Below, piece by piece: positions 15,351-61,388 of a DNA stretch of 64,000 nucleotides. The DNA comes from Malacoraja senta (Eukaryota), in contig CM075995.1 of NCBI GenBank assembly GCA_038087875.1, positions 9,302,001 through 9,366,000 of the forward strand, read 5' to 3'. The position numbers and the translations under genes are program-made. The notes beneath the pieces are model-generated. The model made no database searches, was not told where the DNA came from, and saw only the letters and a program-made list of their open reading frames with translations. The first letter of the stretch is position 1; each line of letters opens with the position of its first letter.

Positions 15351-15614
15351 GAAACATCACCTATCCATGTTCTCCACAGATGCTGCCTGACCTGCTGAGT
15401 TACTCCAGCACTCTGTGAAACGTCACCTATCCATGTTCTCCACAGATGCTGCCTGACCCGCTGAGTTACTCCAGCACTCTGTGAAACGTCACCTATCCAT
15501 GTTCTCCACAGATGCTGCCTGACCCGCTGAGTTACTCCAGCACTCTGTGAAACGTCACCTATCCATGTTCTCCACAGATGCTGCCTGACCCGCTGAGTTA
15601 CTCCAGCACTCTGT
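15351..15614 (+). repeat. Tandem array, 4 x 66 bp (PLE-derived)
   Basis: Unit GAAACGTCACCTATCCATGTTCTCCACAGATGCTGCCTGACCCGCTGAGTTACTCCAGCACTCTGT starting at 15351, 15417, 15483, 15549. Confidence 0.95.
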
Positions 15615-16154
15615 GTCCAGCTCTTTTCTTTGCGGCCTGCAATGTATACATGAATCCACTTCCTTTTTATGAAGGCTGTTACGATAGCTTCTGCTTTCAT
15701 TGTTTCTAATAGTGCATAATGTGTTTTTTTGATGATATATTTAAGGGCAGCACAGAGTTGGTCTTGGCATCATGTTCGCTGCACACATTGAAGGATCTAT
15801 TCCTGTGCTGTACAATTCTATATTAACACTCTGGGGGAAAGTCACCGAAAATAATAGCTCATCTAAGCACATCATTTAGAGTTTGTTTTTGCCAATGGGC
15901 TAATAATTTATGAAAATATTAAAATTATTTACTCTTGAACTTAGACTTGGAAAGATCGTCTATTATTAGATGTTGGAGCAGGTTTGAGGAGTTGTGACCT
16001 ACTGTTAGTTTGTATATTTTTGGGGAACTTCAGTGTTATGTTTTGAGCTGGCCATTTATTTAATATTAACTGCTATTAAGGTTAATGTACTGTCAATAAA
16101 TACTTTTCAGATGTGACAAATATTTTAAGGGGAGTAAAGAATAAGCTTTACTGT

Positions 16155-16426
16155 AGACTTTAGAGGTGAAGCATGGAAACAGACCCTTCAGTCCATCGAG
16201 TCCGCGTTGACCAGCAATCCCCATACACTAACACCATTCGAAAGACTAGTGACAAATTACAATTTTACCGAAGCCAATTACCCTACAAACCAGTAGGTCT
16301 TTCGAGAAAACCGGAGAAAATCCACGTGGTCACAAGAAGAATGATCAACCTCCGTACAGACAGCTCGAACCCGGGTCTCTGGCGCTCTAAGGCTGCAACT
16401 CTACTGCTGCACCACTGTGCCGCCCC
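16155..16426 (-). mobile_element. V-SINE
   Basis: Minus-strand head GGGGCGGCACAGTGGTGCAGCAGTAGAG, B box GGGTTCGA, V-domain and CR1-like tail. Confidence 0.85.
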
Positions 16427-17824
16427 AAGTACTGCTAGTTTGTATATTTGTAGGGAAGTTGCAGTTATGTTTTGAGCTGGCCGTTTAATTCATATTGTGT
16501 CGGGAGGCACTGCAGATGGTGGTTTACATTAAAAAATATGCACAAAAGTCTGCTGTAACTCAGCGGGACAGGAGCATCTCTGGAGAGAAGGAATGGGTGA
16601 CTTTTCAGGTTGAGACCCTTCTTCAGACTGCCTGAAGGGTCTCGACTTGAAATATCACCCATTTAATTAATATTAACTACGACTGATGTAAAGTTTGTGC
16701 ACTGATAATAAATACTTTTTAGATGGGGCAAATCTTTTCAAGTGGAGTAAAGAATAAGCTGTCTGTGATCAAACTGAGAAAATATTCAGAATGGAACATA
16801 ATGAAAGCAGTTAAATGCATGTCATTGATTTTCTCAACAATGCAAATATAATGCACATAAATCCGTGGGTAAGGCTCTGTATTCAAGGTGTACAAAATAC
16901 AGGAGTTATGATTTATAACGGCAATTATCTGAATTATACAGCAGAAAGTATGTATAGATTAGATACTTGCCTGTTAACTCATTTGCATTTCATCTCATTT
17001 GCAAAATGGAGGGATTTTACCACCGCGTGATATTAAGTAACACAGATAAAGCTGCTAGTGAGGGTTAAGGGACATCTGCACAAGTCTTGCTCTTATTTAT
17101 CATTTAGTCATGAGGTATGATAATACATGTGATGGTGAGGTGGAGGGAGCTTCCCTGTCAATATCTGCCACATGTGGGGGATGCAGTTTATTTCTCAACA
17201 TTTATCGTCCACTCCAGAGCAAGCAAACATAATTCAACCCAGGAAGAACAGTCTAAGTAATAATTTTTGATGACATCTACATTTCAGACGTTCATGCACT
17301 CCTGGCCAATTGAACCATTCCTGGCAAAGTGAACAGTTTTGAACTACAGTAGATTTTTAACACCAGACTTGCTTTGCATACATTGAAAAATGTACAAGGG
17401 CTTGTTTGAAATAGGGTCACAGGGTAAGAAAGGAACTACCTGGTGGGTGCCACACATTCATTGATATAAATGCTATTTAATAAACACGTCAGAAACAGGA
17501 GCTGGAGTGGGTCATAGAAGCCCACATGTGTTGCAATCAGATCATTTGTGATCTAATCTTTGCTATCAATAATCTCCTCCATGATCTTCACAACACATGA
17601 CTTCCCTGAAGTCCAAATATATTATTACCTCAGCTTTAAATGTGCCTAGTGATTTGACATCAACAGATTTCCGAGGAAGATAATTGCAATGATTCACATC
17701 ACTGTGAGAGAAAATAATCCCTAACCCTTCAGCGTTAAGTCATCAGCCCTTAATCCTGAAAGTATGACTGCTAGTTCTTGACTCCCACCAGATGAAACAT
17801 CCCTGAAGCCCTGTCAAGAAGTTT

Positions 17825-18200
17825 AAACAGTTCAATGTTGCTTTATTTGTCTCGTATTCAACGGCACAGTGACATTTGTTTTGCATATTTACACATGTGT
17901 GCGCCGCCGTGTTTTGGCACCATTTCCAAAGTCTAGTCCGCCTGTTTGCACGGTCTACTGGAGCAGTTCCTGATCCAGGTGAGCCCCAGGCTCCATCGCC
18001 CTCAACTGGCTTGCCCCACCAACCGTCGTCCCTCTCCTCTCCTGAACATCTTTGTCTCCTGCAGCCGACCTTGAAGTCGCTGGAGGCATTACCCTGTTTC
18101 ACCCACCCTTGCTCCTCGCATCCGATGTCGCCAGTGTCTCCCTCTGTTGAGCCTTCGGTCGGGCACCACCAACTGGCAAGCCTTCGGCCTCTACTACGCG
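17825..18200 (-). mobile_element. GC-rich non-coding element with Rex1-like tail (second family)
   Basis: Homologous in opposite orientation to 63005-63205 (GCCAGT.GAGGGCGA.GGAG...CCTGGATCA.GA.CTGCTCCAGTA). Confidence 0.6.
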
Positions 18201-18389
18201 GCACCTCAGGAAGGCTTCATTCACTCATTCATGTCAGTTATTCAGTCACTCAATCTAAACTCTTCTAAAAATGGTATTGATCAATTCTGCTTAATATTCT
18301 TGTCCCAGTATTGCCACTTTGGCGTGCATTTTATTAAATTTGGAGACTTGACAGCCCAGTGCCACCAAAGCCCAGTACCATTTCAGCAA

Positions 18390-19035
18390 GAACATAGAAA
18401 AATAGGTGCAGGAGTAGGCCCTTTGGGCCAGCATCTCCATTCAATTTGATCATGGCTGATCATCTAAAATCAGTATCCCGTTCCTGCTTTTCCCCCATAT
18501 CCATTGGTTCCTTTAGCCCTAAAAGCTAAATCTGACTCTCTTGTAAACACCCAGTGAATTGGCCTTGCACTGCCTTCTGCGGCAGAGAATTCCACAGATT
18601 CACAACTCTCTGGATGAAAAAGTTTTTCCTCATCTCAGTTCTAAATGGCCTACCCTTTATTCTTGAACTGTGGTTCTGGACTCCCCCAACATCGGGAATT
18701 TTTTTCCTGCACCTTGCCTGTCCAATCCTTTAAGAATTTTATATGTTTCTATAAGATCTCCTCTTATCCTTCTAAATTCCAGTCAGTACAAGCCCAGTCG
18801 ACCCATTCTTTCATCATATGTCAGTCCAGCCATCCTGGGAATTAACGTGGTGAACCTACGCTGCACTCCCTCAATAGCAATAATGCCCTTCCTCAAATTA
18901 GGAGACTAAAATTGCACGCAATACTCCAGGTGCGGTCTCACCAGGACCCTGTACAACTGCAGTAGGACCTCCTTGCTTCTAATCTCAAATCCTCTTGCAA
19001 TGAAGGCCACATGCCTTTAACTTTTTTCACTGCTC
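18390..19035 (-). mobile_element. 5'-truncated CR1
   Basis: Same family as 2481-3121 and 45672-46948; (TTTCTATG)-type tail at 18390. Confidence 0.9.
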
Positions 19036-19249
19036 CCAAAGTCCACAAGCCTAGCTGGGTGGAGATTCAACACTGGCGTCCCTCGGCAAAGGAGATGACA
19101 CAAAGCTGGGTGGCAGTGAGAACTGTGAGGAGGATGCTATGAGAATGCAGGGTGTCTTGGACAGGTTGGGGGAGTGGGCAGATGCATGGCAGATGAAGTT
19201 TAATGCGGATAAATGTGAGGTTATCCACTTTGGTAGCAAAAACAAAATG

Positions 19250-19560
19250 TAAGCGACCTGTCCAGCTTTCGCCGAGGTAAGTGGGTGTTTGTTGGAAGTC
19301 CAAGCGCCTGTTGTTAACGAAGACAGCTAGCTCTCGCTTAGCTTCCTTGTTGTTTAGATGGAATGCTGTTGACACTGTTTTGCCTTCACTCAGCTTTAGA
19401 CGCCACTGTCGTAGGTATACAGCCAAAGTTCCCATGTCTTGACTCAAGGAGCTTTAGATTGTCTTCCACTCTTTGTGTCTCATCAGGATGGCTAGATCGT
19501 CAGCATACCCATATTTTCCAGCGATGGTCTCTGGGAGGTCATGGATATACACGTTGAATA
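19250..19560 (-). mobile_element. I-group (Vingi/Ingi-like) LINE RT fragment
   Basis: FNVYIHDLPETIAGKYGYADDLAIL...YLRQWRLKLSEGKTVSTAFHLNNKEAKREL...PTYLG; contains the YADD catalytic motif and an internal stop. Confidence 0.65.
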
Positions 19561-19799
19561 ATTGACAACTAGCATCTCCTTTTGTACCACCCAGACTTTA
19601 GCTCAGTGGAGGATAACCTGGATTGCAGAATGATGACTGAAATAACGATGAAATAAGTCTGATCTGTTATATATAAAAGAAAAGAGAGAGAAAGCCGTGG
19701 AATGAATCATGGAAGAGACTTACAACAATGGCAGAAAAAAGCCTGAAAAGTGGTAGATATAGCTAGCTATTGAATAGGAAACATGGTGGAGTACATGCA

Positions 19800-20462
19800 C
19801 CAATCAGTAACACCCACAATCTGTCCTGGACCAACCACGTTGAAGCTATGGCCAAAAATGCCTCTAATTCCTCTAGAGACTGACATTTGACATGTTTCCA
19901 ACTTTCACCGATGCACCATAGTAAGCATACTTTAGGTTTGAGAACAGCTCTTCCCCAGACCGCAAGAAATTGCAGAGAGTTGCGGATGTAGCCCAGAACA
20001 TCACACAGACCAGACCACCATTAATTCCATCTACACTTCATGCTGCCTTGGGAAAGCAGCCAACATAATCAAGGACCCTTTTCACCCCTGGTCATTCCTC
20101 CTCGTCCTTGTTCTTGTTGGGCAGAAGATGCAGAAGTTTGAAAACACACACCACCAGACAAGGTGACAGCCGCTACTCTGTTATCAGATATCTGAAAAGT
20201 TCTCCCATAAGCCAGGATACACTTCTGATCTTCCAACCTACCTCATTGCAGACATTAAACCTTTTCTCTGGAACTATAACGCTACAATTTTGAAAATTAT
20301 ATTTTGCACTCTGGTAGATTTTCTCTTTGCTCTACATGCTGTACTTGAGTTTGGTTTGATTGCATTCATGTATAGTATTATCTGCTTTAATTAGCTTGTA
20401 CGCAAACAAAGGCTTTTTACTGTATCTCTCTACATGTAACGAAAATAAACCAGTACCAATAA
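19800..20462 (+). mobile_element. Rex1/Babar 3' fragment
   Basis: Decayed DRKKLQRVADVAQNIT...IIKDPFHP...GRRCRSLKTHTTR plus the typical 3' UTR. Confidence 0.8.
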
Positions 20463-21000
20463 ATACAGAAAGCCCATCATGGTGTCAGTGGATGGAGAGA
20501 TGTGGGTGGAAGGGGACAGAGGGGGGGATAAAATGGAACTGGGAGACTCGGGGATGGGAGATGAGTGTATGAAGGAAGGGGAAGGAGCAGGGTGACTGGG
20601 GAGTGCACCAGGGGGGCAGGCAGGGGAAAGAAACAGGGCTTCAGGGTATTTGACAGACTGTATTTCAGGCAGGTCTTGACCCAAAACGTCACCTATTCCT
20701 TTTCTCTCGAGATGCTGCCTGACCCGCTGAGTTACTCCAGATTTTTGTGTCTATGTTTGATTAGAACTGAGTAATGTGGTTTAGGCAAGCTCGAGTTTCC
20801 ATTTGCTTGTCGAACATAGATGTATGTTAGGAGAGTCACCTGTCTGTACTTTGGAATGGCTTCTTGCGTTTGAGGCAGCAGAAGTTATGTAACGCCCTCC
20901 AGGCACTGTAGCCAGTTAGACCTTCCGCATTCTGATGCAGCAGGGTGATGCCATCCGGCTCGACATCCGTAGGGCGCATGCTCCGGGTTGGTGCCAAGCC

Positions 21001-21226
21001 GCGGCGAGTGAGGTTGCATTAGGGCTGCAAGCTGCGGCGACTGAGGTTGCATTAGGGCTGCAAGCTGCGGCGACTGAGGTTGCATTGGGGCTGCAAGCTG
21101 CAAGCTGCAGCGACTGAGGTTGCATTAGGGCTGCAAGCTGCGGCGACTGAGGTTGCATTAGGGCTGCAAGCTGCAGCGACTGAGGTTGCATTAGGGCTGC
21201 AAGCTGCGGCGACTGAGGTTGCATTA
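21001..21226 (+). repeat. Minisatellite, ~6.6 x 33 bp
   Basis: Unit GCGGCGACTGAGGTTGCATTAGGGCTGCAAGCT; one 7-bp internal duplication near 21100. Confidence 0.95.
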
Positions 21227-21614
21227 TTCCTGCTGCTGTCTGTGTTTGTTGTCGTTCACCTGACTGAGGTCACTTGACAGGGCGAGGAGGTCGACAACAT
21301 CAGCCCCTTTGAATGGCTGTGTCACTTTGTAAAGATTCTGGATACGTAGGCTACATGTCTCAGGACTACCTGAACAGAAATGATTTTGTATTGATTTAAC
21401 TTTACCCATATTTTCTATCTCACTGAACTTACCGTGTGAATCAATAGCCACTTCATCATTGTTTGGGGGAGATGCCTTTTTGCCGGCCGTGCCAGATTGA
21501 ACAACTGCCCAGGGGGTATATTGGGTACTATGTAATATGTGTTGCCATATTAGCGTCCATATAGGATAAAGAACAGCAAAGAAAGAATGGAAAATCAACT
21601 AGCTTTTTAAAATT

Positions 21615-22560
21615 TTCTGTATTGCCATCGTGGACTGTTATTGGTCCTGCAGTTGTTCATAATTGATATAAATGATAGAAGGTTCACACCCAAGTTTGCT
21701 AATGATACAAAGCTCAATGGGAAGTGAGCAGTGAGGATAAAGCAAAGATATGCCTCCCTTTATCGATCGGGGCAGTGAATATAAGAGTCAGGAAGTCACA
21801 TTACACATTTATGAGACTTTGGCTAGGCAGCATTTGGAGTATTGTATGCAGTTCTGATCAACCATTACAGGAGGGATGTGGAGGTTTTATAAATGGTGCA
21901 GAAGAAGTTTACCAGAATGCTGCCTGGATTAGAGGCCTGCAAAGAGAATTTGGACCACCTTGGATTATTTTCTCTTGAGCGCTGGAGGTTGAACTGTTGA
22001 AGTATATAACGTTATGAGGCACATCGATAGGGTAAATACAGAACCTGGTTCCCAGGGTGGAATACTTCAGAGATACAGCTCAGAAATGGGCCCTTCGGCG
22101 CAAGCGAGTGTTCACTCTGTACACTAGCACTACACACCAGGGACAGTTTAGAATTTGTTTTATCAAAGCCAATTAACCTACAAGTCTGCATGTCTTTGCG
22201 GTGTGGGAGGAACCCGGAGCACCTGGAGAAAACCCACAAGGTCACAGGGAGAAGGTACAAACTCCATACAGACAGTACCCGTAGTCCGAATTGAACCTAG
22301 AGATACAGCATTAAAATTAGCACCCAGTGGAAACCCACGTGGTCACAGGGAGTACGTGGAAACTCCACACAGACTAGAGGGTATAGCTTTAAGGTGAGAT
22401 AGTCAAAGTTTAAAGGAGCTTACGTGGGCCAGGTTCTTACGTACAGAGATTGGTGGATGCCTGCAACGCACGGCCAGGGATGGTAGTGGGGGCAGATAAG
22501 ATTGACGCATTTAAAAGGCTTTTTGATAGGCACATAGATATGCAGGGAATGGAGCACATT
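21615..22560 (+). mobile_element. Old CR1 fragment with nested V-SINE pieces (~22070-22375, -)
   Basis: KFANDTKL, HLEYCMQF and CR1 3' UTR remnants. Confidence 0.7.
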
Positions 22561-22837
22561 GTGGCAAAGTGTGAGATTGTGCACTTGTAGGAAGGAAACA
22601 CCGTTTTTTATAATGGAGGGAAATTAGTGAGCATAGAGTCGAGAGTTTTTTCTTTGTCATATGCATTGTATGTGAATCGGAACAGTGAAATGTTTAGATG
22701 AGAGGTGCAGCTTTGCAGGTGCATTAGATACAACAACAATTGAAATAAACATTATTTTTTAATGCATAATATATAATAAATGATCAAATATTCGACGTAA
22801 TTCCAATGAGATTCTTAGTTCCAAGAGATTTTCGACC

Positions 22838-29530: not shown

Positions 29531-30250
29531 AAGTTTCAAAGGTTTCAAAGGTCTTTTATTGACACATGTTCCAATTAAGGTGCAGTGATATTCGTATTAC
29601 CATACAGCCATACTAACAAAAGCAACAAGACACACAACTACATAAAAGCTAACATAAACTTCCACCACAGCGGATTCCCCACATTCCTCACTGTGATGGA
29701 AGGCAATAAAGTCTAATCTTCTTCCCTCATTTTTCTCCCGCGGTCGGGGCAGTCGAACCATCTGCAGTCGGGGCGATCGAAGCCCCCGTAGCCGGCGATT
29801 GAAGCTCCCGCGTTGGGGCGGTCGAAGCTCCCGCGTTGGGGCGGTCGAAGCTCCCGCATTGGGGCGGTCGAAGCTCCTGCGGCTTGGAGCTTCCGAAGTC
29901 GATCTCTAACCAGGGACCGCGAGCAGTCCGCACGATCCCGCTGTTCAAGCACAGAGGTCGATCCCTGGCATAGGGATCGCCAGCTCCACGATGGTAAGTC
30001 CGCAGACCCGAAGTCGGTCTGCAGCAACTCCTCGATGTTAGGCCAAAGTGCAGACGGAGATACCATACGGAAAACAATCGCATCTCCGTCAAGGTTAGAG
30101 ATGAAAAAAAAGTCTCCCCCCCCCCCTTCCCCATCCCCGTAAAACAAGGTGAAGAACACTAACAACATACATTTAACAAATACTAAAGAAACAACAGAGA
30201 AGGAAGGGACAGAGAGACTGTTGGCGAGGCAGCCACTACTGGCGCGCACA
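29531..30250 (-). mobile_element. GC/CpG-rich non-coding retroelement with Rex1-like tail
   Basis: (CCTTTGAAA)n tail on the minus strand after AATAAA; internal ~23-bp repeats GAAGCTCCCGCGTTGGGGCGGTC; shares CACTGTGA.GGAAGGCA..AAAGTC with 14635-14660. Confidence 0.7.
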
Positions 30251-32842: not shown

Positions 32843-33541
32843 CAATCAGTTACTGCAGCAAGCAAGCAAGCCTAGGTCTGATTATGGGTATTCATGACAT
32901 GATGCAATTTGTGGCACCAGAAAGGAATTTTGAAGAGTGGACCTTGGAATATGAGAATAGTCATATTTGCAGATACCTGTGTGGAGTAATTCCGTGGCTG
33001 CTTTTCATGTTTGAAGAAGGGTCTCGACACGAAACGTCACCTATTCCTTTTCTCCAGAGTTGCTGCTGACCCGCTGAGTTACCCCAGCATTATGTGTTTA
33101 TCTTTGTAGCTTTTCATGATTTGAGGCATTCAGCTGTTACCTCTGTGTGAAAGCACAGCAAGGGACCAGATGTGACCGAGGGAAGAGATTGACGATGGAG
33201 ATGTGGAGAAATGACTTCAATCCAAAGGATGTCAACCTTGACTACGGAAATTAGGAGGATTGGAGGCAGGGGCTGGCGTTGGTGGAATTGGGAGATGCAA
33301 TTTGCACATGAGCCAGTGGAATCTAGTGATGGCTGTGGAGGTCAAGTTGCTGAATATATTTACAAAGAGTATAGATACATTTCTAGGGACAAAAAGCATT
33401 AAAAGGATCAGCCCGAAGAAGTGTCCTGACCCAAAACCCGTCTCCAGAAGCTGCCTGATCCACTGAGTTCCTCCAGCACTTTATGTTTTGCTCAAGATCC
33501 CAGCACCTGCAGTTTCTTGTGTCAATAACATAGAGAGTGAA

Positions 33542-33745
33542 GGTACACAAAAATGCTGGAGAAACTCAGCGGGTGCAGCAGCATCTATGGAGCGAAGGAA
33601 ATAGGCAATGTTTCGGGCTAAAACCCTTCTTCAGCCCGAAACGTTGCCTATTTCCTTCGCTCCATAGATGCTGCTGCACCTGCTGAGTTTCTCCAGCATT
33701 TTTGTGTACCTTCGATTTTCCAGCATCTGCAGTTCCTTCTTAAAC
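33542..33745. mobile_element. Hairpin mini-Penelope (family 2)
   Basis: Near-perfect inverted arms, 35-nt unpaired tail, TSD ACATAGAGAGTGAA at 33528-33541 and 33746-33759. Confidence 0.9.
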
Positions 33746-34814: not shown

Positions 34815-35715
34815 GTGTAGGAAGGAACTGCAGTGTAAGGAACTGCAGATGCTGGTTTACACCGATGATAAACACAAAATTCTGGAGAGAATGAATGGGT
34901 GAAGTTGCTAAACACTTTAACTCCCCCTCCCCCTCCATTCCCACACTGACCTTCCTGTCCTGGGCCTCCTCCACTGTCAGAGTGAGGCCCAACACAAATT
35001 GGAGGAACAGTACTGCATATTTTGCTTGGGCAGCTTACAACCCAGCAGTATGAATATTGATTTATCTAACTTCAAGTAACCCTTGCTTTCCCTCTCTCTC
35101 AGTCCGTCCCCCAACCTAGTTCTCCGATTAGTATCATGTCCTTGTGATTAATTTTACTGATTGTATGCCTCGTTGTCACCTTCCCCTCAGCCAACGATGA
35201 ACCATTCTACATTTCCTTGACCATCGTCTGTCCCTATCACACCTTACCCTTCCATAATCCCTCGTCTCCCTCCCGCTGACCCTCAGTCTGAAGATGGGTC
35301 TCGACCCGAAATAGACAATAGGTGCAGGAGTAGGCCATTTGGCCCTTCGAGCCAATCATCCACAATCAGTATCCCGTTCCTGCCTTCTCCCCATATCCCC
35401 AGACTCCGCTATTTTTAAGAGCCCTATCTAGCTTTCCCTTGAAAGTATCCAGAGAACCTGCCTCCACTGCTCTCTGAGGCAGAGAATTCCACAGACTCAC
35501 AACTCTCTGAGAAAAAGTGTTTCCTCGTCTCCGTTCTAAATGGCTTACCCCTTATTCTTAAACTGTGGTCCCTGGTTCTGGACTCCCCCAACATCGGGAA
35601 CATGTTTCCTGCCTCTAGCGTGTCCTTTCCTGCCTCTAGCGTGTCCCCCATTGTCACCCATTCCTTCTCACCGGAGATGCTGCCTGTCCCGCTGTGTTAC
35701 TCCAGCATTTTATCT
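34815..35715 (+). mobile_element. Penelope-like 3' end with inverted 5' arm; CR1 (35311-35650, -) inserted in the hammerhead
   Basis: GIY-YIG end SHTDLPVLGLLHCQSEAQHKLEEQYCIFCLGSLQPSSMNID; CTGAAGATGGGTCTCGACCCGAAA then CR1; PLE resumes at GTCACCCATTCC (~35653). Confidence 0.85.
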
Positions 35716-42069: not shown

Positions 42070-42145
42070 ATTTTTATTCCTGTAATACTGTGACATCCAG
42101 TACGTCATTGTGTACTGGATGTCACAGTATTACAGGAATAAAAAT
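42070..42145. repeat. Perfect inverted repeat, 34-bp arms with 8-nt loop
   Basis: ATTTTTATTCCTGTAATACTGTGACATCCAGTAC-gtcattgt-GTACTGGATGTCACAGTATTACAGGAATAAAAAT. Confidence 0.95.
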
Positions 42146-45671: not shown

Positions 45672-46948
45672 CGGTAAATCATGTCTGACGTATCATAGAA
45701 TTTTTCGAGGATGTAACTAGTAGAGTGGATAAGGGAGAACCAGTGGATGTGTTATATCTGGATTTTCAGAAGGCTTTCGACAAGGTCCCACATAAGAGAT
45801 TAGTATACAAACTTAAAGCACACGGTATTAGGGGTTCAGTATTGATGTGGATAGAGAACTGGCTGGCAGACAGGAAGCAAAGAGTAGGAGTAAATGGGTC
45901 CTTTTCACAATGGCACGCAGTGACTAGTGGGGTACCGCAAGTCTCAGTGCTGGGACACCAGCTATTTACAATATATATTAATGATTTGGACGAAGGAATT
46001 GAATGCAACATCTCCAAGTTTGCAGATGACACAAAGCTGGGGGCAGTGTTAGCTGTGAGTAGGATGCTAGAAGGCTGCAAGGTGACTTGGATAGGCTGGG
46101 TGAGTGGGCAAATGCATGGCAGATGCAGTATAATGTGGATAAATGTCAGGTTATCCACTTTGGTGGCAAAAACAGGAAAGTAGACTATTATCTGAATGGT
46201 GGCCGATTAGGAAAAGGGGAGATGCAACGAGACCTGGGTGTCATGGTACACCAGTCATTGAAAGTAGGCATGCAGGTGCAACAGGCAGTGAAGAAAGCGA
46301 ATGGTATGTTAGCATTCATAGGAAAATTATTTGAGTATAGGAGCAGGGAGGTTCTTCTGCAGTTGTACGGGGTCTTGGTGAGACCACACCTGGAGTATTG
46401 CATACAGTTTTGGTCTCCAAATCCAAGGAAAGACATTCTTGCCATAGAGGGAGTGCAGAGAAGGTTCACCAGACTGATTCCTGGGATGTCAGGACTTTCA
46501 TATGAAGAAAGACTGGATAGACTCGGCGTGTCCTCGCTAGAATTTAGAAAATTGAGGGGGGATCTTATAGAAACTTACAAAATTCTTAAGGGGTTGGACA
46601 GGCTAGATGCAGGAAGATTGTTCCCGATGTTGGGGAAGTCCGGAACAAGGGGTCACAGTTTAAGGATAAGGGGGAAATCTTTTAGGACCGAGATGAGAAA
46701 ATCATTTTTTCACACAGAGAGTGGTGAATCTGTGGAATTCTCTGCCACAGAAGGTAGTTGAGGCCAGTTCATTGGCTATATTTAAGAGGGAGTTAGATGT
46801 GGCCCTCGTGGCTAAAGGGATCAGGGGGTATGGAGAGAAGGCAGGTACAGGATACTGAGTTGGATGATCAGCCATGATCATATTGAATGGCGGTGCAGGC
46901 TCGAAGGGCCGAATGGCCTACTCCTGCACCTATTTCTATGTTTCTATG
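45672..46948 (+). mobile_element. Longest CR1 copy: RT domain to 3' tail, frameshifted
   Basis: ORFs 45725..46183 ([13 protein letters not shown]...KFADDTKLG) and 46087..46761; (TTTCTATG)n tail. Confidence 0.95.
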
Positions 46949-46984: not shown

Positions 46985-47196
46985 ACACAAAAATGCTGGA
47001 GAAACTCAGCGGGTGCAGCAGCATCTATGGAGCGAAGGAAATAGGTAACGTTTCGGGCCGAAACCCTTCTTCAGACCCGAAACGGCCCGAAACGTTACCT
47101 ATTTCCTTCGCTCCATAGATGCTGCTGCACCCGCTGAGTTTCTCCAGCATTTTTGTGTACCTTCGATTTTCCAGCATCTGCAGTTCCTTCTTTAAC
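46985..47196. mobile_element. Hairpin mini-Penelope (family 2), young
   Basis: TSD ATTTCAGCTGTTGGT at 46970-46984 and 47197-47211; minus-strand hammerhead GGU CUGAAGA A GGGUUUCGGCCC GAAACGUU ACCU at ~47043-47076. Confidence 0.9.
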
Positions 47197-48345: not shown

Positions 48346-48356
48346 TCTTTTACTCA

Positions 48357-49264: not shown

Positions 49265-49548
49265 AGGGCAGCACAGTGGCGCAGCAGTTGAGTTGCTGCC
49301 TCACAGCGCCAGGGACCCGGGTTTGATCCTGACTATGTCTGTACAGATTTTGTACATTCTCCCTGTGACCTGCGTGGGTTTTCTCCAGGATCTCAGGTTT
49401 CCTCCCACAGTCCAAAGAGATACACGTTTGTAGGTTAATTGGCTTGGTATAATTGTGTAAATGAGTGTTAATGGATGAGGATCGCTGGTCGGCACGGACT
49501 CTGGGCCAAAGGGCCTGTTTCCACCCTGTATCTCTAAGCTAAACTAAA
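49265..49548 (+). mobile_element. V-SINE
   Basis: GGGCAGCACAGTGGCGCAG head, V-domain, tail. Confidence 0.85.
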
Positions 49549-49617
49549 AGTGACCCATTCGACAGACTATTACAGTCGAGACACAAGAAACTACAGATGC
49601 TGGAATCTTGACAAAAC

Positions 49618-50057
49618 ACAGAGTGCTGGAGTAACTCAGCGGGTCAGGCAGCATCTGTGGAGAACATGGATAGGTGACGTTTCACAGAGTGCTGGAGTAA
49701 CTCAGCGGGTCAGGCAGCATCTGTGGAGAACATGGATAGGTGACGTTTCACAGAGTGCTGGAGTAACTCAGCGGGTCAGGCAGCATCTGTGGCGAACATG
49801 GATAGGTGACGTTTCACAGAGTGCTGGAGTAACTCAGCGGGTCAGGCAGCATCTGTGGAGAACATGGATAGGTGACGTTTCACAGAGTGCTGGAGTAACT
49901 CAGCGGGTCAGGCAGCATCTGTGGAGTGAATGGATAGGTGACGTTTCACAAAGTGCTGGAGTAACTCAGCGGGTTTGGCAGCATCTGTGGAGAACATGGA
50001 TAGGTGACGTTTCACAGAGTGCTGGAGTAACTCAGCGGGTCAGGCAGCATCTGTGGA
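49618..50057 (-). repeat. Tandem array, 6 full + 1 partial 66-bp units
   Basis: Reverse complement of the 15351 unit, period 66 (49618, 49684 ... 50014), inside a diverged PLE copy (~49580-50240). Confidence 0.95.
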
Positions 50058-50371
50058 GGGAATGGACAGATAACCTTTTGGGTCGGGACCCTCCTTCAGA
50101 TTGATTATAGTAGGGGGGAGAAAACTGGAAAAGGGAGGCTGGGGCAGGACAGAGCCTAGCAATAGGTGGGTACGGGGGGGGGGGGGGTAGATTAGCAGAT
50201 GGGTGGAATAACAGATTAGAGGCGAAAAGGAGACAAAAGGGTAGCACATGACGAGAGGATGTGAAATATTATTGAATGTGAGACTCTTTCAGTAGTCAGA
50301 AATCACTTCAGCTGTACTGCTCACAGAAACTTACTTTTCCCCACTTTCTCATAAGATGTATGACATGACTG

Positions 50372-50683: not shown

Positions 50684-51584
50684 TTATACGGCTCACTTAC
50701 ATTTCCCTGCCATAACGTTGTATAGCATAGAATTGAATTGAATTGAATACATTTTATTAGCCAAGTATGTTCACATACAAGGAATTTGCCTTTCTGCTTT
50801 GCTCGCATAGCAGAAAGGCTATAACAACACGATATACAGTAGACATATAAAAATAAAACATAATTTAAACATGAAGAATGAAATAAAATACCAGAGCAGG
50901 GGCCTTTGTCCCATCTCGTCCATGCCGAACAAGATGCCCCATCAAAGTTAGACCCATTTTACCATGTTTAAAGTCACAGTCTGAGAATCAAAGGGCTGAG
51001 CACTTTGGCCCAACTTGCCCACACCGACCAACATGTCCCATCTACACTAGTCCCACCTTCCTGTGTTTGGCCCATATCCCTCTAAACCTGTCCTATCCAT
51101 GCACGTCTGATTGCTTCTTAAATGTCGCAATAGTCGCAGCCTCAACTACCTCCTCTGGCAGTTCATTCCATAAACCCACTACCCTTTGTGTGAAAAAGTT
51201 ACCCCTCAGATTGCTATTATATCCTTCCCCCTTCACCATAAACCTATGTTCTCTGGTTTTGATTCATCTACTCTGGGCAAGTGTGTGCGTTTATTCGATC
51301 TATTCCTCTCAGGTCCATATCCATCTAAACCTTTCCTATTCATATATCTTTAAGTGTTGTCATAATACCTGCTACAACTACTTCCTCTGGCAGCTTGTCC
51401 CATATATCCACCACACTATGTGCGGAAAAAGTTGCCCCTCAGGATCCTATTAAATCTTTCCCTCTCACCTTGAGCCTATGCCCTGTAGTTCTTGAATCCC
51501 CTACTCTGAAAAAGACTGTGCATATTAGACTTTATCTTGCACTAAACGATATACCCTTTGTCATGTATATGCAGGATACCGAGA

Positions 51585-52175
51585 TGCAGTTGTACAGGGT
51601 CTTGGTGAGGCCACACCTGGAGTATTGCGTACAGTTTTGGTCTCCTAATCTGAGGAAAGACATTCTTGCCATAGAGGGAGTACAGAGAAGGTTCACCAGA
51701 CTGATTCCTGGGATGGCAGGACTTTCATATCAAGAAAGACTGGATAGACTCGGCTTGTACTCGCTAGAATTTAGAAGATTGAAGGGGAATCTTATAGAAA
51801 CTTACAAGATTCTTAAGGGGTTAGACAGGCTAGATGCAGGAAGATTGTTCCCGATGTTGGGGAAGTCCAGAACAAGGGGTCACAGTTTAAGGATAAGGGG
51901 GAAGTCTTTTAGGACCGAGATGAGAAAATCATTGATCACACAGAGAGTGGTGAATCTGTGGAATTCTCTGCCACAGAAGTTAGTTGAGGCCAGTTCATTG
52001 GCTATATTTAAGTTAGATGTGGCCCTTGTGGCTAAAGGGATCAGGGGATATGGAGAGAAGGCAGGTACAGGATACTGAGTTGGATGATCAGCCATGATCA
52101 TATTGAATGGCGGTGCAGGCTCGAAGGGCCGAATGGCCTACTCCTGCACCTATTCTCTATGTTTCTATGTTTCTA
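51585..52175 (+). mobile_element. 5'-truncated CR1 (young)
   Basis: ORF 51395..52078 C-terminal part is nearly identical to the 3' half of the 45672-46948 copy. Confidence 0.9.
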
Positions 52176-52439
52176 TCTCTCTGCACATCAACATTTACTA
52201 GTTTCTATTTTTAAAAGTATGCTGGTTTACTGTCCTTTCGACCATTCCGCCTAACCTCGCATGAACACTCCTCTTGCCAGTTACTTCATCTATTTATAAT
52301 CTCTTTGCATCCTCCTCGTGGTTCACTTCCCCTCCTCACGTAGCACCCTCGGTAGAGCTGCTTATGTTGTTTCAATCTCACTCAACATAAATTGTAACTA
52401 GATAACATCACCAGCTACTCTCTGGAAGGAACAGAACTC

Positions 52440-52785
52440 TCCCCCTCCCATTCCCACTCTGACCTTTCAGCCCTGGGCTTTCTCCACTGTCAGAGTGAGG
52501 CCCAGCGTAAATTGGAGGAACAGCATCTCATATTTCGCTTGGGCAGCTCACACCCCAGCGGTATGACCATTGACTTCTCCAACTTCATGTAACCCTTGCT
52601 TTCCCTCTCTCTTCCACATCCCTCCCCTACACTAGTTCTCCAACTGGTTTCACTGTCCTCCTGATGTATTTGACCGTTTGTATGCCTCGTTGTCACCTTC
52701 CCCATAACCAACAATCAAGCATTGTACATTTCCTTCATCATTGTCTGCTCAGCCATGATAACATCTCGACCCGAAATGTCACCCA
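52440..52785 (+). mobile_element. Penelope-like GIY-YIG end and 3' UTR
   Basis: HCQSEAQRKLEEQHLIFRLGSSHPSGMTIDFSNFM*. Confidence 0.85.
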
Positions 52786-52801
52786 ATCAATGGTTGCCTA
52801 T

Positions 52802-53744: not shown

Positions 53745-54312
53745 TTTAGTTTAGAGATTTTAGTTTAGAGATACAGCTTGGAAACGGGGCCTTTGGCCCA
53801 CTGAGTCCACGCCGACCAATACACTAGTTCTATTCTACACATTAGGGACAATATATAGAAGCCAATTAACCTATAACCTCTAAGTCTTTGGAATGTGGGA
53901 GGAAACCAGAGCACCCTGCGAAAACCCACGTGGTCACAGGGAAAATAGACAATAGGTGCAGGAGTAGGCCATTCAGCCTTTCGAGCCAGCACCGCCATTC
54001 AATGTGATCATGGCTGATCATCCCCAATCAGTACCCCGTTCCTGCCTTCTCCCCATATCCCCTGACTCTGCTATCTTTAAGAGCCCTATCTAGCTCTCTC
54101 TTGAAAGCATCCAGAGAACCGGCCTCCACCGCCCTTTGAGGCAGAGAATTCCACAGACTCACCACTCTCTGTGAGAAAAAGTGTTTCCTCGTCTCCGTTC
54201 TAAAGGGCTTACTAAATGTACAAACTTTGCACAGACAGCACCCATAGTCAGGATTGAACCCGGGTCTCTGGTGCTGCAAGGCAGCAACTCGACCGCTGCT
54301 CCACTGTGCCAC
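53745..54312 (-). mobile_element. V-SINE with nested CR1 3' end (~53944-54210)
   Basis: SINE halves flank the (TAGACAA)-tailed CR1. Confidence 0.85.
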
Positions 54313-55119
54313 CTCAATAATAATAATAATAATAATAAACTTTATTTCGGACTCAAGGTCCAGACTAGGGGCAACATTACATAAAAAATGCATTGCATAT
54401 TAAAAAAATATCAAGTACATATAAAATCTTAGTATATCACTTATAAAGCATCATTAGTGGTAAAGTTCTGTTTAATTAGTGTCACGTGTACTGAGGTACA
54501 GTGAAAAGCTATTGTTGTGTGGTGCTATCCAGTCAGCGGAAAGACAATACATGATTGCAATCGAACCATTTACAGTGATTACGTTATGCTGCATTGTTTT
54601 GAATGAGCATAAATTTGGAATTCGTGCCTGCAGAAGATGGTCTTCAGTTTCTCATTTGTGGCACGATTGATAGGGTAGAATGTCATGCCTTGGCTCTTGT
54701 TGGGGATTGGATAGAGTTTGTACTGCTGGATGTAACCTGGAAGACCCATGAGATGATACATGAGTGTCCAGCTATGGCCTTGAGCCTTAAACAAGGATGT
54801 TGTCAGCACCTGCTTGGATTAGGTTTAGATTTAAGTTTATGTTTCTCAGGTGTACCTAGGTAAAGTGAAAAGCTTTGTTTTGCATGCTAGCCAATGAAAT
54901 CTGATAATGCTACACTGCTTTGTGATAGAAAGTAAAGTGAATAAGCAATCGAGATTCACTCAGATATATATTTCTATGGTAGACAAAAATGCTGGAGAAA
55001 CTAAGCGGGTGAGGTAGCATCTATGGAGCGAAGGAAATAGGTGTTGAATAACCCAGCAGTAGCTCTGAACCCTGCCTCTGACTCTATGGCACATGTCCTT
55101 CAAAAACCCCAAGCTGTTT

Positions 55120-55630
55120 CAATAGACAATAGACAATAGGTGCAGGAGTAGGCCATTCGGCCCTTCGAGCCAGCACCACCATTCACTGTGATCATGGCTG
55201 ATCATCCCCAATCAGTACCCCGTTCCTGCCTTCTCCCCATATCCATTGACTCCGCTATCTTTAAGAGCTCTATCTAATTCTCTCTTGAAAGTCGCCAGAG
55301 AATTGGCCTCCACTGCCTTCTGAGGCAGATAATTCCACAGATTCACAACCCTCTGTTCTCTGCAGAGTTGCTGCCCACAGAGCCAGAGACCGGGGTTCGA
55401 TCCCAACCTCGGGTGATACCTGTGTTGAGTTGGCACTTTTTCCTCTGTGGGTTTTCTTTGGGTGTTCTGGTTCCCCCCCACATCCCACAGACGTGCAGGT
55501 TTGTAGGTTGATTGGCCTCTCTATAGGTTGCCCCTAGTGTGTGGGGAGTGAATGAGAAAGTGAGATAACATAGCACTAGTGTGAATCGGTGGTCAGTGTG
55601 GACTCGAGGGCCGAAGGGCCTGTTTCCAAC
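55120..55630. mobile_element. CR1 3' end (-, to ~55355) abutting a V-SINE (+)
   Basis: CR1 3' UTR, then GGGGTTCGATCCC head and V-domain. Confidence 0.8.
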
Positions 55631-56284
55631 AGGAGAATTTCCAGCTACATTGCTAGTCCTTTACGTCTTTGAAAGAAGACGTTACCTTGCTTGTAATGAA
55701 CTCTCACAACAGTCACAAGAAATAATCCAGAGCTTCACCTGAGACACAAAATGCAGGAGTAACTCAATAGGTCAGGTAGCATCTCTGGAGAATAGGTAAA
55801 ATACCGTTCTTCAGACTGAGAGTCAGGGGAGAGGGAAACTAGAGGTATTAAAAGGCAGCAGCGATAAACAAAGAGTCCACAATGGTCCATTGTTGGCTGT
55901 GGAGGAGGTGATAAAGAGGGGATACGAACAATAAAACTAGCAGAATGACTTAGGTAGGAGAAGGATGGAGAGAGAGGGAATGCAAGGGTTACTTGAAATT
56001 AGAGCAATCAATATTCATGTTCACCTTGTACACACTTGGACTTTCCACAAATCTCCCTTGCCACCATAATGGTATTAAAAAAGATCATCAACCTTGCATC
56101 AACCAAGAGATGGAGTTGGCTGCGATGTAAGCCTGCAAGTGATAGTATTGGCATTAAACAAGACTATATTCAGATGCTGATCCGCATTGTTTCACTGTGC
56201 TGATCTATATAGTTAATGCTTCAATATTGGTGCAAATGTGCATGCATAACGTGGATGCCATTTTGGAGCCATGTGTGTGTGAGT

Positions 56285-56665
56285 GGGGACCTCATTGAAA
56301 CTTACTGAATAGTGAAAGGCCTGGATAGAGTGGTTGTGGAGAGGATGTTTCTACTAGTGGGAGAGTTTGGGACCAGAGGCCATAGGCTCCGAATTGAAGG
56401 ATGTTCCTTTAGGAAGGAGATTGGGAGGAATTCCTTTAGTCGGAGGGTGGTGAATCTATGGAATTCATTGCCACAGAAGGCTCTGGAGGCCAAGTCATTG
56501 GATATTTTTAAGGCAGAGATAGATTCTTGATTAGTACGGGTGTCAGGAGTTTTGCGGCGAAGGTAGGAGAATGGGGTTGAGAGGGAAAGATAGATCAGCC
56601 ATGATTGAATGGTGGAGTAGATGATGGGCCAAATGGCCTAATTCTGCTCTTATCAATTATGAACA
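56285..56665 (+). mobile_element. CR1 3' fragment
   Basis: KGLDRVVVERMFLLVGEFGTRGHRLRI...RVVNLWNSLPQKA. Confidence 0.85.
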
Positions 56666-56865
56666 TGAACTGAAGCCCAAAGACCAAGCATAAGTCGTAC
56701 CAGTTTCACACCGAATGCTCTCTATTTCTATCTTGTGTTGTGGGAACTTTTCCTAATCATCGCTGAAAAACTTTTCTGGTCTAATGGCATTTTGTTTTGT
56801 GTAATACCATCGGGATTATTATGCCGCATGTAACACAATAATGAGAGCATGGGTCTATTTTTGCA

Positions 56866-57098
56866 TCTTTCTGCCTTGTTTTTCTCCCATCGCAGTGTAA
56901 TGTGACTATTATTCAATGGAAGCTTTCTGCATGCTGGAGCTGTTTCACACGTCAACACTGCTGCCTGTCACACTCTTTCTGCCTTGTTTTTCTCCCATCC
57001 CACTGTAATGTGACTATTATTCAATGGTAGCTTTCTGCATGCTGGAGCTGTTTCGCACGTCAACACTGCTGCCTGTCACACTCTTCTGCCTTGTTTTT
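56866..57098 (+). repeat. Tandem duplication, ~2.15 x 108 bp
   Basis: Units start at 56866, 56974 and 57082; few mismatches. Confidence 0.9.
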
Positions 57099-57770
57099 AT
57101 ACATTAAACATAATCTGCTCATTCTGTGCTGCCGGAATTGTATTTATATCTTAATTCCTCTCCGTGAAGGAGAGAGGGAGCCTTTGGTGTTTATCCTTCT
57201 CTATTCCCTTAAGTCTCATGATGCCGTTAGGTTATATCATTTACAGCAGCAAGTTCCCTGCAGGCTTAATTGTTCATTTCCATGCGTATTAAGGAAGAGT
57301 ACGAGGCAGCTTGCAATAGTTTTCTCCCACGCAGCGCTTGCCAGTCATCTCGATGCTGGTTGAGGAGCATTCCAAAATAGAGACCGATGAATCATATGCT
57401 CAGTATGTTTGTCCTACAGTATTCAAACTGCTGCTTGTTTTTTTGTCCTTCTAATCTGAATTGTGATTGAGGAAAGCATTCAATATTGAATTACAACCAC
57501 TGTGCAAAGTGAACGAGCTGGTCTTAGTCTACTTAAGTTTCCAAATGCGAGGCTGCTTTTGCGATGTTATCTCTATTCTTTCATTAGTATTGCTGTATTT
57601 AAGTTCCTTCTGGTATGTTGGTCTTTGGCCCTGGTTATTCTTTACCTCCACCCATCCCAAAATCTGCTCCTGATTATCGCATCTATTGTTGTTCTTGAGC
57701 CAAAATAGTTGCTGAATTCACATTGTGGGCTGATTCAATTTTGAAATCACTCGATTCTCATTTTAATTAA

Positions 57771-58374
57771 AGGGCCTGTCCCACTCGGGCCGTCATTTAC
57801 TCGACAGGTCGGTAGTGACTGACGAGCGATGGTCGCGCGCGTCATCATGCGTCCGCACAGCCGTCTGGAGCTCGTGACGTCATTTGAAGATGGACACAAA
57901 ATGCAGGAGTAACTCAGCGGGACCGGCAGCATCTCTGGAGAGAAGGAATGGATGATGTTTCGGGTCGAGACTCTTCTTCAGTCTGAAGATGGGTCTCGAC
58001 CCGAAACGTCACCCATTGCTTCTCTCCAGAGATGCTGCCGGTCCCGCTGAGTTACTCCTGCATTTTGTGTCTATCTCCAATCGTCTTGGCCCCGCTCTGG
58101 GAGTAGAAGTGGGGGCGGATCCGGATCCGCAACGGCCGTGAGCTCCAGGCCGAGCTCACCGATTGTTTGCCTGCTTCTGCTGCTATTGCAGGTGAGACGT
58201 TGCGCCTGTCCCACTTTGGCCGTCAGTTACGCGACAGGCCGGTGGCACGCGAAGATTTCATTCAGGACGAAGTCCACACTCCTCCACACCACTCCATGCG
58301 CCCATCCCGCGCTACCCACACGCTAACAGGTCGCGTAAATGGCGCGCGAATGAAAGCCAATTGGGACAGGCCCT
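57771..58374. mobile_element. PIF/Harbinger-like MITE carrying a mini-PLE hairpin (~57885-58078)
   Basis: TIRs AGGGCCTGTCCCA / TGGGACAGGCCCT, flanked by TAA and TTA; CpG-rich body; internal CCTGTCCCACT at ~58206. Confidence 0.7.
57980..58014 (+). ncRNA. Minimal hammerhead ribozyme motif
   Basis: CUGAAGA 57983-57989, stem II GGGUCUCGACCC 57991-58002, GAAACGUC 58003-58010. Confidence 0.6.
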
Positions 58375-58397
58375 TTAGGGTCGTAGAGTCATACAGC

Positions 58398-58675
58398 CTG
58401 AGGCATTTTGCCAGACAAGCTGGGCAGTCTGCTCTGGAAACCACACCACAGGATCCATGGAGTCATTTCCCTGCAGTGCCTGCAGGACGATCCATGACGA
58501 CCACTGCCCCATGGACTTGCGGTCAAAGGTGTTGGTCCGGAAGAACCTTTCCACAAACGACAGATGGTGCGGCAATGTCCAGCTGACTGGCACATTGCGT
58601 GGCATCTGCGCCAGGCCCATCCTTCACAACACCGGGGACAGGTAGAACATCAGCAGATAGTGACACTTGGTGCCC
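58398..58675 (-). mobile_element. Tx1-like LINE ORF2 internal fragment
   Basis: GTKCHYLLMFYLSPVL*RMGLAQMPRNVPVSWTLPHHLSFVERFF...DPVVWFPEQTAQLVWQNAS. Confidence 0.65.
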
Positions 58676-58914
58676 ATTCTTGGTTAGATCACTGGTAACA
58701 AAGCAGCGGAGAGGGTGCAGAGAAGAATTGTAAGGCTAATACAACAAAAGCAAGAGTATGTACATCAGTAAAGGATGAAGAGAAGTGCATCTGTCTGGAG
58801 ACAAGAAGGCCGAGAGGTGACATTATATGGCTTTTAATCTGAAAGATTTTCATCGAGTAGATACAGTGAGTGTTCCTGCTTCTGTGAGGAACAAAGCTGG
58901 AGGCCAGCTGTAAA

Positions 58915-60100
58915 CCATAGAGTGATACAGCATGGAAACAGGCCCTTTGGCCCAACTTGCCCACACCAACCAACACTCGTCCCACTTACCTGCGTTTGGC
59001 CCATATCCCTTTAAACCAGTTTCATCCATGTACCTGCCCAAATAGTTCTTAAACGTTGCGATTGTACCTGCCTCAACTCCGCCAGCTAGTTCCATACACC
59101 CACTATGGAATCCCATAGTCCCTGAGAAATCCAATAATAGACAATAGGTGTAGGAGTAGGAGTAGGCCCTTCGAGCCAGCACCGCCATTCAATGTGATCA
59201 TCCCCAATCAGTACCCCGTTCCTGCCTTCTCCCCATATCCCCTGACTCCGCTCTCTTTAAGAGCTCTTAGCTCTCTCTTGAAAGTATCCAGAGAACTGGC
59301 CTCCACCGCCCTCTGAGGCAGAGAATTCCACAGACTCACCACTCTCTGGGTGAAAAACCTTCTTTACTTAATAATCTTCTTTAACTAAAGAATGGCTAGA
59401 TAGTGAACTCTCTTGTCACAGAAAGTGACTGAAGAAATTAATACAGGTGAATTTAGGGCAAATATAGGAAGCAGAAGGGAATGTAGACAATGGAACAGGA
59501 CAGCACAGGAACAGATCCTTCGGCCCGCAATGTCTGTGCCGAATATGATGCCGTTAAACTGATCTCATCTGCCTGCACGTGATCCATATCTCTCTAATCT
59601 CTGCACTTCCATGTGCCTATCTAAAAGCCTCCTAAACACCACTATCATATCTGCCTCCACCACCACTCTCTGTGTAATTAAAAAAACTTGCTCTGCATAT
59701 CTTCATTAAACTTCCCCCTCTCACTGTATAGTTATGGCCTGTAGTGTTGTTGATTTCCACCCTTGGAGAAAGGTTCTGACTGTCTACCCCATCTATGCCT
59801 TATTGCATATCCTTCGATCACGTTTCACCTCAACCTCTAACGTTCCAGGGAAAAAAGAGTTACAGTGAAAGATTCAGATGAGGCTGTATGGATGGATGGA
59901 AGGAGAGGAGTATAAACAAGCTTAAAAGAAGCTGAAAGATTTGTGTTTGTGCAGTAGAGTCATACAGTGTGGAAACAAGCCCTTCATCCCAACTTGCCCA
60001 CATCGACCAACATGCCCCATCTACACTGGTCTCACCTTCCCACATTTGGCCCATATCCCTCTAAACCTGTCCTATCCATGTACTTGTCGAAACATTTCAT
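58915..60100 (-). mobile_element. Cluster of four CR1 3' fragments
   Basis: Pieces at ~58915-59100, 59135-59360, 59490-59850 and 59955-60100. Confidence 0.75.
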
Positions 60101-61068
60101 TCAATGTAATCCTATGAACTCAACCACAAATTTGAAAATGCTGTCAGCTGAACCACAGTTATCTCTAGAGGGATAAATCCGTGCTCCTCTCATGGGTTCC
60201 TGACGTTTTTTTTCATGGTTTGTAATGGAAGTTGTTTTTTCTGTTTGCAAATATTACCAAACACCGGGTATTAACAGTCATCAGAGGGACCTCAAGAGAA
60301 TAGTGAAATTTAATACATTTCATAAATTAAGTGTGCTGTAATTCACTTTGATGGGCAAAATTGAGGAAAAGGAGTATTAAAAAAAATAATGGACACATAA
60401 TAATACAGATGCTGGAGTTTTGAGCGAAACACAAAGTGCTGAAGGAACTCAGCAGGTCAGGCAGTGTCTAGGGAGAGAATGGACAGGCGACATTTTGGGT
60501 TGGGATCCATCTTCAGATTCTGTTTCAGTACTGTTTTAAAATGGCTCATCAATGCAGGGACTGAGAAGGATTTGGATTCAAATCTTGCATATAGAGCAAA
60601 AATAGAACTGTTGGAGGAGCTCAGCAGGTTCGTGCAGCGTCTGGGGGGGGTGATAGGAATTGTTGGTTTCTGTGTCTTTCTCTTAATTATAGCGGAATAA
60701 ATTGTCTATCATACAGTTAAGAAAACATTTGAATATGAAATCAGTCAAAATGTCTCTACAACAATGGGTAGTTCTGAGTGGAGTATGCAGATGTAGTTGC
60801 AAGGAATTGCAGATGCTAGTTTACCAAAAAAGAGACAAAATCCTGGAGTAACTGAGTATGTCAGGAAGCATCTCTGGAGAATGCAATGTGTAGGAAAGAA
60901 CTGCAGATGCTGGTTTGAATCGAAGGTAGACACAAAATGCTGGAGTAACTCAGCGGGACAGGCAGCATCTCTGGAGAGAAGGAATGGGTGACGTTTTGGG
61001 ACGAGACCCTTCTTCAGACTGATGGATATGCAATGGATTTGGTCAGGTCTGAAGAAGGGAACTGACCC

Positions 61069-61388
61069 AAAACATCACCTACCCATGTTCTCCACAGATG
61101 CTGCCTGACCCGCTGAGTTACTCCAGCACTCTGTGAAACGTCACCTATCCATGTTCTCCACAGATGCTGCCTGACCCGCTGAGTTACTCCAGCACTCTGT
61201 GAAACGTCACCTATCCATGTTCTCCACAGATGCTGCCTGACCCGCTGAGTTACTCCAGCACTCTGTGAAACGTCACCTATCCATGTTCTCCACAGATGCT
61301 GCCTGACCCGCTGAGTTACTCCAGCACTCTGTGAAACGTCACCTATCCATGTTCTCCACAGATGCTGCCTGAGTTACTCCAGCACTTT
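61069..61388 (+). repeat. Tandem array, 5 x 66 bp (last unit has an 8-bp deletion)
   Basis: Units start at 61069, 61135, 61201, 61267, 61333, just after CTGAAGA (61049-61055). Confidence 0.95.

Follow-up and report, generated by a model that had tools for sequence, protein, structure and literature searches.

A 66-bp half-hammerhead unit recurs with a single junction in tandem arrays inside three Penelope-like pseudo-LTRs of a skate genome

Three tandem arrays of one 66-bp unit lie within 64,000 nucleotides of the genome of the skate Malacoraja senta (GenBank assembly GCA_038087875.1, contig CM075995.1, positions 9,302,001 to 9,366,000 of the forward strand; hereafter the window), each inside the end of a Penelope-like element (PLE). 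How did the same unit, joined head to tail at the same junction, come to lie within separate and differing copies of this element? A sequence-only reading of the window had proposed an ultra-small, retrozyme-like element released by hammerhead self-cleavage. Our best reading is instead a PLE-derived multilocus minisatellite with one ancestral junction, which was copied in register, by homology, into pre-existing pseudo-LTRs (pLTRs).

Tandem Repeats Finder, run on the window, confirmed the arrays and returned one 66-bp consensus for all three: 15350–15615 (locus 1, 4.0 copies), 49617–50058 on the minus strand (locus 2, 6.7 copies) and 61070–61372 (locus 3, 4.6 copies), the last unit of locus 3 extending to 61389 with an 8-bp deletion. 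We number the unit from the TG preceding AAACGTC and base identities on the 12 full-length units that follow a junction, excluding the thirteenth (61332–61389) for its deletion. These internal units hold 7 differences in 792 bases, nine of the 12 being perfect, and identity between loci averages 98.6%. Both CpGs are intact in every one (24/24 sites), so that the near identity and CpG preservation noted in the sequence-only reading were upheld. Same-family BLAST matches in the window outside the arrays (n = 40) have a mean identity to the unit of 86%, and the two CpGs are kept by 14 of 27 and 21 of 39 covering solo copies. The junction 19-mer occurs 12 times exactly and once as a one-base variant in the window, all 13 within the arrays. 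Every unit contains a stop in all sense frames and is thus non-coding on that strand. The unit is a 5′-truncated copy of the PLE pLTR. It takes up the pLTR at hammerhead position G12, immediately 3′ of stem II, and stops at the foot of the 3′ hairpin, a few bases before pLTRs usually end. As a head-to-tail repeat of more than 20 bp, derived from part of a transposable element (TE) and present at more than one locus (here three), it belongs with the TE-derived multilocus minisatellites.

The host of the arrays is the hammerhead-bearing end of an abundant PLE, as had been proposed. Seven window copies carry a strict minimal type I hammerhead core, four of them with the ACGT palindrome, and the family shows the core boxes CUGANGA, GAAA and UH, an unpaired base before stem II, the G10.1–C11.1 pair and a palindromic 15.2–16.2. 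In 14 hand-picked copies stem II pairing reaches 96%, and covariation was not above that of shuffles (83–106 of 500). An Rfam scan of the window gave no hammerhead, its 17 sub-threshold matches being mostly miRNA models on palindromes. Many pLTR copies in the window form inverted head-to-head pairs or 5′-truncated tandems with optional tails of 30–40 bp, an organization described for PLEs (PMC8557442, PMC3846280). Three related C-terminal stubs of a PLE-like open reading frame (ORF), located with a peptide motif, lie at 9514–9753, 34921–35079 and 52398–52592 (+), two of them about 210–220 bp upstream of a hammerhead. Pfam named none of the three, and a protein-atlas match of 0.91 to a cluster with GIY-YIG on 15% of its members is a lead only.

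A young pLTR subfamily with a GUU cleavage triplet occurs at 6191–6377, 33554–33698, 46994–47149 and 62736–62815, as several near-identical copies, mostly in head-to-head palindromes, with intact cores at 47074 and 62735. Young PLE copies in the window are 0–3 bases apart over 76 and hold intact cores, which suggests that PLE enzymes have recently been active.

The composition of the three loci, in element order, is as follows.
15332–15349, +, locus 1 host hammerhead half, 5′-truncated, with C3 lost and one CpG transition in stem II
15350–15415, +, locus 1 first unit, of the array unit's subfamily, with both CpGs decayed
15416–15613, +, locus 1 internal units, three, perfect over 66 bp
15614–15619, +, locus 1 leftover of the usual pLTR 3′ end
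To about 50300 (limit approximate), −, older-subfamily 3′ UTR-like sequence preceding the locus 2 hammerhead half
50081–50099, −, locus 2 host hammerhead half, with A9>G
50015–50080, −, locus 2 first unit, a mosaic of older subfamily at 1–22 (9 differences, G12>A) and unit-identical sequence at 23–66
49619–50014, −, locus 2 internal units, six, with 3, 3, 0, 1, 0 and 0 differences
49578–49618, −, locus 2 older-subfamily tail, resembling solo copies at 33474, 41602 and 60441
60891–61025, −, inverted pLTR copy and tail, head-to-head with the locus 3 host
61049–61067, +, locus 3 host hammerhead half, with an intact CUGAAGA and a changed loop II
61068–61133, +, locus 3 first unit, with 4 differences in 1–15 (G12>A, palindrome lost), then unit-identical
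61134–61331, +, locus 3 internal units, three, perfect
61332–61389, +, locus 3 last unit, 5′ part unit-identical, then the 8-bp deletion and a host-type 3′ end

Comparison of units with hosts reveals that the inner units are more alike across loci than the copies that contain them, which suggests copying into existing copies. The host 5′ halves differ from one another at 7, 12 and 13 of 40 bases, against the 98.6% identity of the inner units, and this divergence, together with their CpG decay, agrees with the earlier description of the hosts as decayed and mutually different. At locus 2, marks of an older subfamily stand on both sides, in the first 22 positions and in the tail, with six unit-type copies between them, and the same marks recur in solo copies. 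At locus 3, host-type changes are confined to the stretch before position 16 in the first unit and the stretch beyond position 37 in the last; consequently, removal of four whole units leaves one coherent old copy. At locus 1, host and unit are of one subfamily, and CpG transitions and a 5′ truncation are all that separates them, with three of four CpGs decayed in the host half and first unit versus none of six in the inner units. Host-like edges with unit-like centers are what copying into existing copies predicts, and the proposal of recombination into existing PLE copies is to this extent supported, as is the argument that independent slippage from each local host cannot yield one junction and one sequence. 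No 6-nt target duplication was found at any of the three loci, where the element ends are approximate. Retrozymes are expected to insert at new sites; each of the three arrays sits in register within a pLTR copy.

We compared contigs of four sequencing runs with positions 59600–61135, which hold flank, host half and first unit and exclude the junction. The runs carry four organism codes, one that of the best match and three others. A joint from 61135 back by 66 to 61070 is present in all four (in 12, 25, 18 and 12 contigs) and is among the 15 best supported of about 6100 joints. Since it recurs in read-derived contigs of all four runs, the junction is not an assembly join; the contigs show that it exists in each genome, and not that these three loci are correctly assembled. 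Flank divergence in the three other organisms, taken over three selected pieces per run, is 5.4, 5.0 and 7.4%, so the junction is older than the copies here look. In the most distant run (7.4%), a 105-nt contig covers 60987–61091 with 4 differences, and the locus 3 host half is therefore probably orthologous in that organism, to judge from this match. Altered forms of the junction, with changed bases or small deletions beside the same join, also occur in the other organisms. The intact-CpG allele at 61074 accounts for 65% of contig depth in the same-organism run and for 40–44% in each of the other runs, which hints weakly at a younger excess, contig depth not being taken as copy number.

The antisense frame of the unit is open and encodes a 22-residue repeat at 49538–50104 (+) and 15311–15769 (−). 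Predicted proteins of Rhinoraja longicauda and Amblyraja radiata contain its peptide. The C-terminus of P0001, a predicted Rhinoraja CCSAP isoform, runs through the junction with host-type residues on both sides, and P0001 is taken as a fourth mosaic locus, seen at the amino-acid level only. AMD1 isoforms of two named skates (P0002, P0154) carry one unit-type piece in the same place, which ends where the antisense strand has a GT resembling a splice donor. Nine Logan-derived peptides (P0003, P0155–P0162) lack the junction, P0160 and others being read-throughs of single pLTRs. We rejected a coding function for the antisense frame, for which there are only three named matches, all minor predicted isoforms. 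The 1025 matches of a sensitive protein search with the 22-residue repeat were likewise rejected as period noise: none of the 150 listed contains the unit's peptide words, and two that were inspected resemble leucine-rich repeats. As expected of vertebrate DNA, patterns for the junction and the family drew no match in collections of metagenome, viral and prokaryote sequence.

Taken together, the various routes of copying into pre-existing hosts make this class of explanation somewhat probable. Within it, we tentatively propose, at rather less than an even chance, that the arrays spread from their own transcripts through homology-primed synthesis by the PLE reverse transcriptase; here we infer the RNA template, the enzyme and the order of events. 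PLE reverse transcriptase is a sister of telomerase. The head-to-tail junction would have arisen before the sampled species split, likely through a run-off and jump of reverse transcriptase. Subsequently, a nick in an old pLTR copy would anneal to an array transcript through the conserved block of about 40 bp at unit positions 23–63, the PLE enzyme would copy one to six units, and the cDNA would rejoin the host through the same homology, with no need for hammerhead cleavage. Later local slippage may have altered the unit count. We favor homology-primed copying because the block of about 40 bp would suffice for it, because it would leave no target duplication, in keeping with the three loci, and because it would insert whole units in register and amplify one clean sequence. 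The recent activity of PLEs also counts toward it, as does the match of the locus 3 host half in an organism 7.4% diverged while three internal units remain unchanged. The two sides of the junction, G12 next to stem II and the foot of the 3′ hairpin, each coincide with the end of an RNA helix and share 1–2 bases of microhomology. Partial tandems, microhomology joins and template jumps have been described for PLEs (PMC3846280, PMC8557442).

A bolder form of the proposal is speculative and, we judge, unlikely: the unit would be a ribozyme-less parasite of a parasite, whose pLTR segment from stem II to the 3′ hairpin is repeatedly copied by the PLE reverse transcriptase (or traversed as a 66-nt ring) and written as repeats into pLTRs by homology priming, in effect an RNA-templated homing in several skate lineages.

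Several observations weigh against spread by homology-primed copying. Loci 2 and 3 speak for a foreign host more strongly than locus 1, whose host, being of the unit's own subfamily, fits inheritance followed by slippage. The inner units of locus 2 vary (three of six), two of them with host-like bases (T at 64; TCA at 20–22), and their history there probably involved repeated events or a mixed donor. No empty orthologous site was seen, the matching 105-nt contig ending at 61091, before the array. The coincidences with helix ends were noticed post hoc and concern the origin of the junction, not its spread, and the present evidence does not separate an RNA from a DNA template. The sample comprises three loci plus one protein, and the CpG rates used for the founder estimate below pool subfamilies of differing ages.

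A DNA template is the first alternative. Ectopic gene conversion, synthesis-dependent annealing or reintegration of small circles, followed by slippage, would give the same in-register mosaic without target duplication; ectopic repair that makes TE-derived tandem arrays has been reviewed (PMC9659126). The nested hairpins of the units, folded with RNA parameters, could favor breaks and slippage. Against this, the perfect homology shared with the old hosts is only about 40 bp, which is short for vertebrate homologous recombination, and random donors among old arrays should bring CpG decay, whereas 24 of 24 sites are intact. We regard this route as possible but unlikely.

Equally doubtful in our estimation is inheritance with slippage, in which array-bearing or chimeric pLTRs, the latter formed by template switching between subfamily RNAs at insertion, were retrotransposed whole and then multiplied locally. 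The host of locus 1 fits this explanation; the unit-type sequence in the AMD1 isoforms of two skates implies that the subfamily is old, and TE-borne multilocus tandem repeats are known (PMC3389668). However, it requires an unmutated founder at all three loci beside decayed edges. Local growth from one founder per locus that kept both CpGs has a probability of 0.022 at the solo rates, and of 3e-3 to 8e-5 with an assumed 1–3% of other divergence, an indicative estimate that takes the perfect unit as founder. It also sits poorly with the match to the locus 3 host half in a species with 7.4% divergence.

An effect of assembly or polishing is a further step less probable. Multi-mapping reads would overwrite the inner units with a genome-wide consensus while flank-anchored edges keep their variants, the arrays and junction being real, and decayed edges with perfect centers are indeed its prediction. 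Yet inner variants persist in three of six units at locus 2, the edges differ at subfamily-diagnostic bases, beyond decay, and one junction in different hosts and four organisms is left unexplained.

The ribozyme itself offers the remaining explanation. As the sequence-only reading stated, each unit holds only the GAAAC–GUC half of the hammerhead; no CUGANGA within one mismatch occurs on its sense strand, and stem II is also lacking. A CUGAAGA had been placed upstream of each array, which holds exactly at 61049 on the plus strand; the counterpart at 15331 is without C3 and that at 50099 has G at A9. Catalytic cores are intact at none of the three host loci: C3 is missing and the palindrome lost at locus 1, A9>G and G12>A are present at locus 2, and G12>A and palindrome loss at locus 3. 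The suggestion that a downstream unit supplies helix III in cis was modeled with a repaired, intact core and two or three units, using nearest-neighbor energies and no tertiary contacts. The required fold makes up 8e-8 to 7e-6 of the ensemble, being disfavored because AACGU in any unit is taken up by pairing with the AUGUU of the unit before it, and with no intact core in any host we do not retain the suggestion. Cleavage did not create the junction, which is 8 nt upstream of the site where the hammerhead would cut.

In the model of cleavage and circularization, an intact upstream half would cut the downstream GUC, in cis or in trans from another pLTR, and 66-nt monomers would circularize and be reverse-transcribed by rolling circle into existing copies. 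Each unit keeps ACGUC–ACCU as a formal substrate, the geometry is possible in the repaired model, dimers and trimers of minimal hammerhead ribozymes cleave weakly in vitro (PMC4209133), and circles would yield variable numbers of perfect units. Opened at the cleavage site, the unit folds as a rod of −17.1 kcal/mol (z −3.15) against a mean of −9.4 in 12 solo equivalents, controls that are decayed and from other subfamilies. We rejected circle stability as a selected trait, the closed circle reaching −10.7, rank 67 of 885 possible intervals, which is not exceptional. Described animal retrozyme RNAs span about 170–400 nt (PMC7229834), and cleavage was observed in one of nine tested (bioRxiv 10.64898/2026.07.22.740005). 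With dead host cores, a unit devoid of CUGANGA and so rare a cis fold, this model is very improbable.

Nor does the unit qualify as a retrozyme by the defining feature, which for Li, Clavereau and Pollet (bioRxiv 10.64898/2026.07.22.740005) is a complete type I hammerhead in at least two tandem units that follow one another; it works like a non-autonomous PLE derivative.

Homology-directed copying of a PLE-derived minisatellite thus remains our preferred reading, and we compared the arrays with known systems. The hosts resemble the PLE minimal hammerheads of Cervera and De la Pena (2014, PMC4209133) in CUGANGA, the extra base before stem II, G10.1–C11.1, GAAA, the palindromic ACGU, a short helix I and the many solo and inverted copies. 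They depart from them in that the 5′ half of the ribozyme is absent from the repeated unit and the array hosts are, by sequence, catalytically dead. Non-LTR retrozymes (PMC7229834; bioRxiv 10.64898/2026.07.22.740005) similarly form short pLTR-derived tandem arrays, mostly of under 7 units, and are reported in the same vertebrate group with consensus lengths down to 51 bp; the preprint's pLTR-derived families, from 51 bp up, include one chondrichthyan. Theirs carry a complete hammerhead per unit, unlike the present one, and the preprint has an inserted pLTR amplified locally, whereas the present unit and junction recur within hosts that are older and differ from one another. TE-derived multilocus minisatellites (Ahmed and Liang 2012, PMC3389668; PMC9659126) share the head-to-tail repetition of part of a retroelement at several loci. 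Units of that kind best resemble local neighbors or travel within the TE, whereas the inner units here match other loci over their own host ends. PLE partial tandems (PMC3846280, PMC8557442) show head-to-tail 5′-truncated pLTRs, inverted copies and optional tails; in contrast, our truncated copies lie downstream of a full 5′ half, with one fixed boundary, in register inside an older copy.

TE-derived multilocus minisatellites (PMC3389668) and pLTR-derived tandem repeats are therefore already known. We found no literature description of the 66-bp unit or of such arrays in skates, although Repbase, Dfam, subscription papers and preprint supplements may list it. A half-hammerhead unit with a single junction recurring in different older pLTRs likewise appears to be without a match in the literature searched, repeat databases standing outside that search.

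How PLEs transpose is still poorly understood, and most TE-derived minisatellites have no explained origin, PMC3389668 accounting for 6%. Should arrays arise through in-register copying into old pLTRs, many dated homology-directed insertion events would be preserved in skate genomes, which comparative genomics could test directly. Were the template RNA, the PLE enzyme would seem to behave in a telomerase-like or homing manner, while inheritance with slippage would make the unit an ordinary repeat. Whichever reading holds, retrozyme screens that demand a full hammerhead per unit would miss this class.

The window contains further features. A GC- and CpG-rich stretch at about 14490–15330, directly upstream of locus 1 and adjoining its truncated hammerhead, is unclassified; a test 24-mer from it has no second copy in the window. 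LINE-like reverse-transcriptase fragments lie at 12577–13110 (−), 45689–46761, 51329–52078, 2909–3391 and 63422–63880, the first with an RVT_1 match and the others judged by appearance. A perfect 31-bp inverted repeat with an 8-nt loop at 42073–42142 has a sub-threshold Rfam miRNA match. Finally, tandem repeats that are unrelated to the 66-bp unit occur at 20995–21226 (33 bp), 29735–29881 (23 bp) and 56866–57098 (108 bp).

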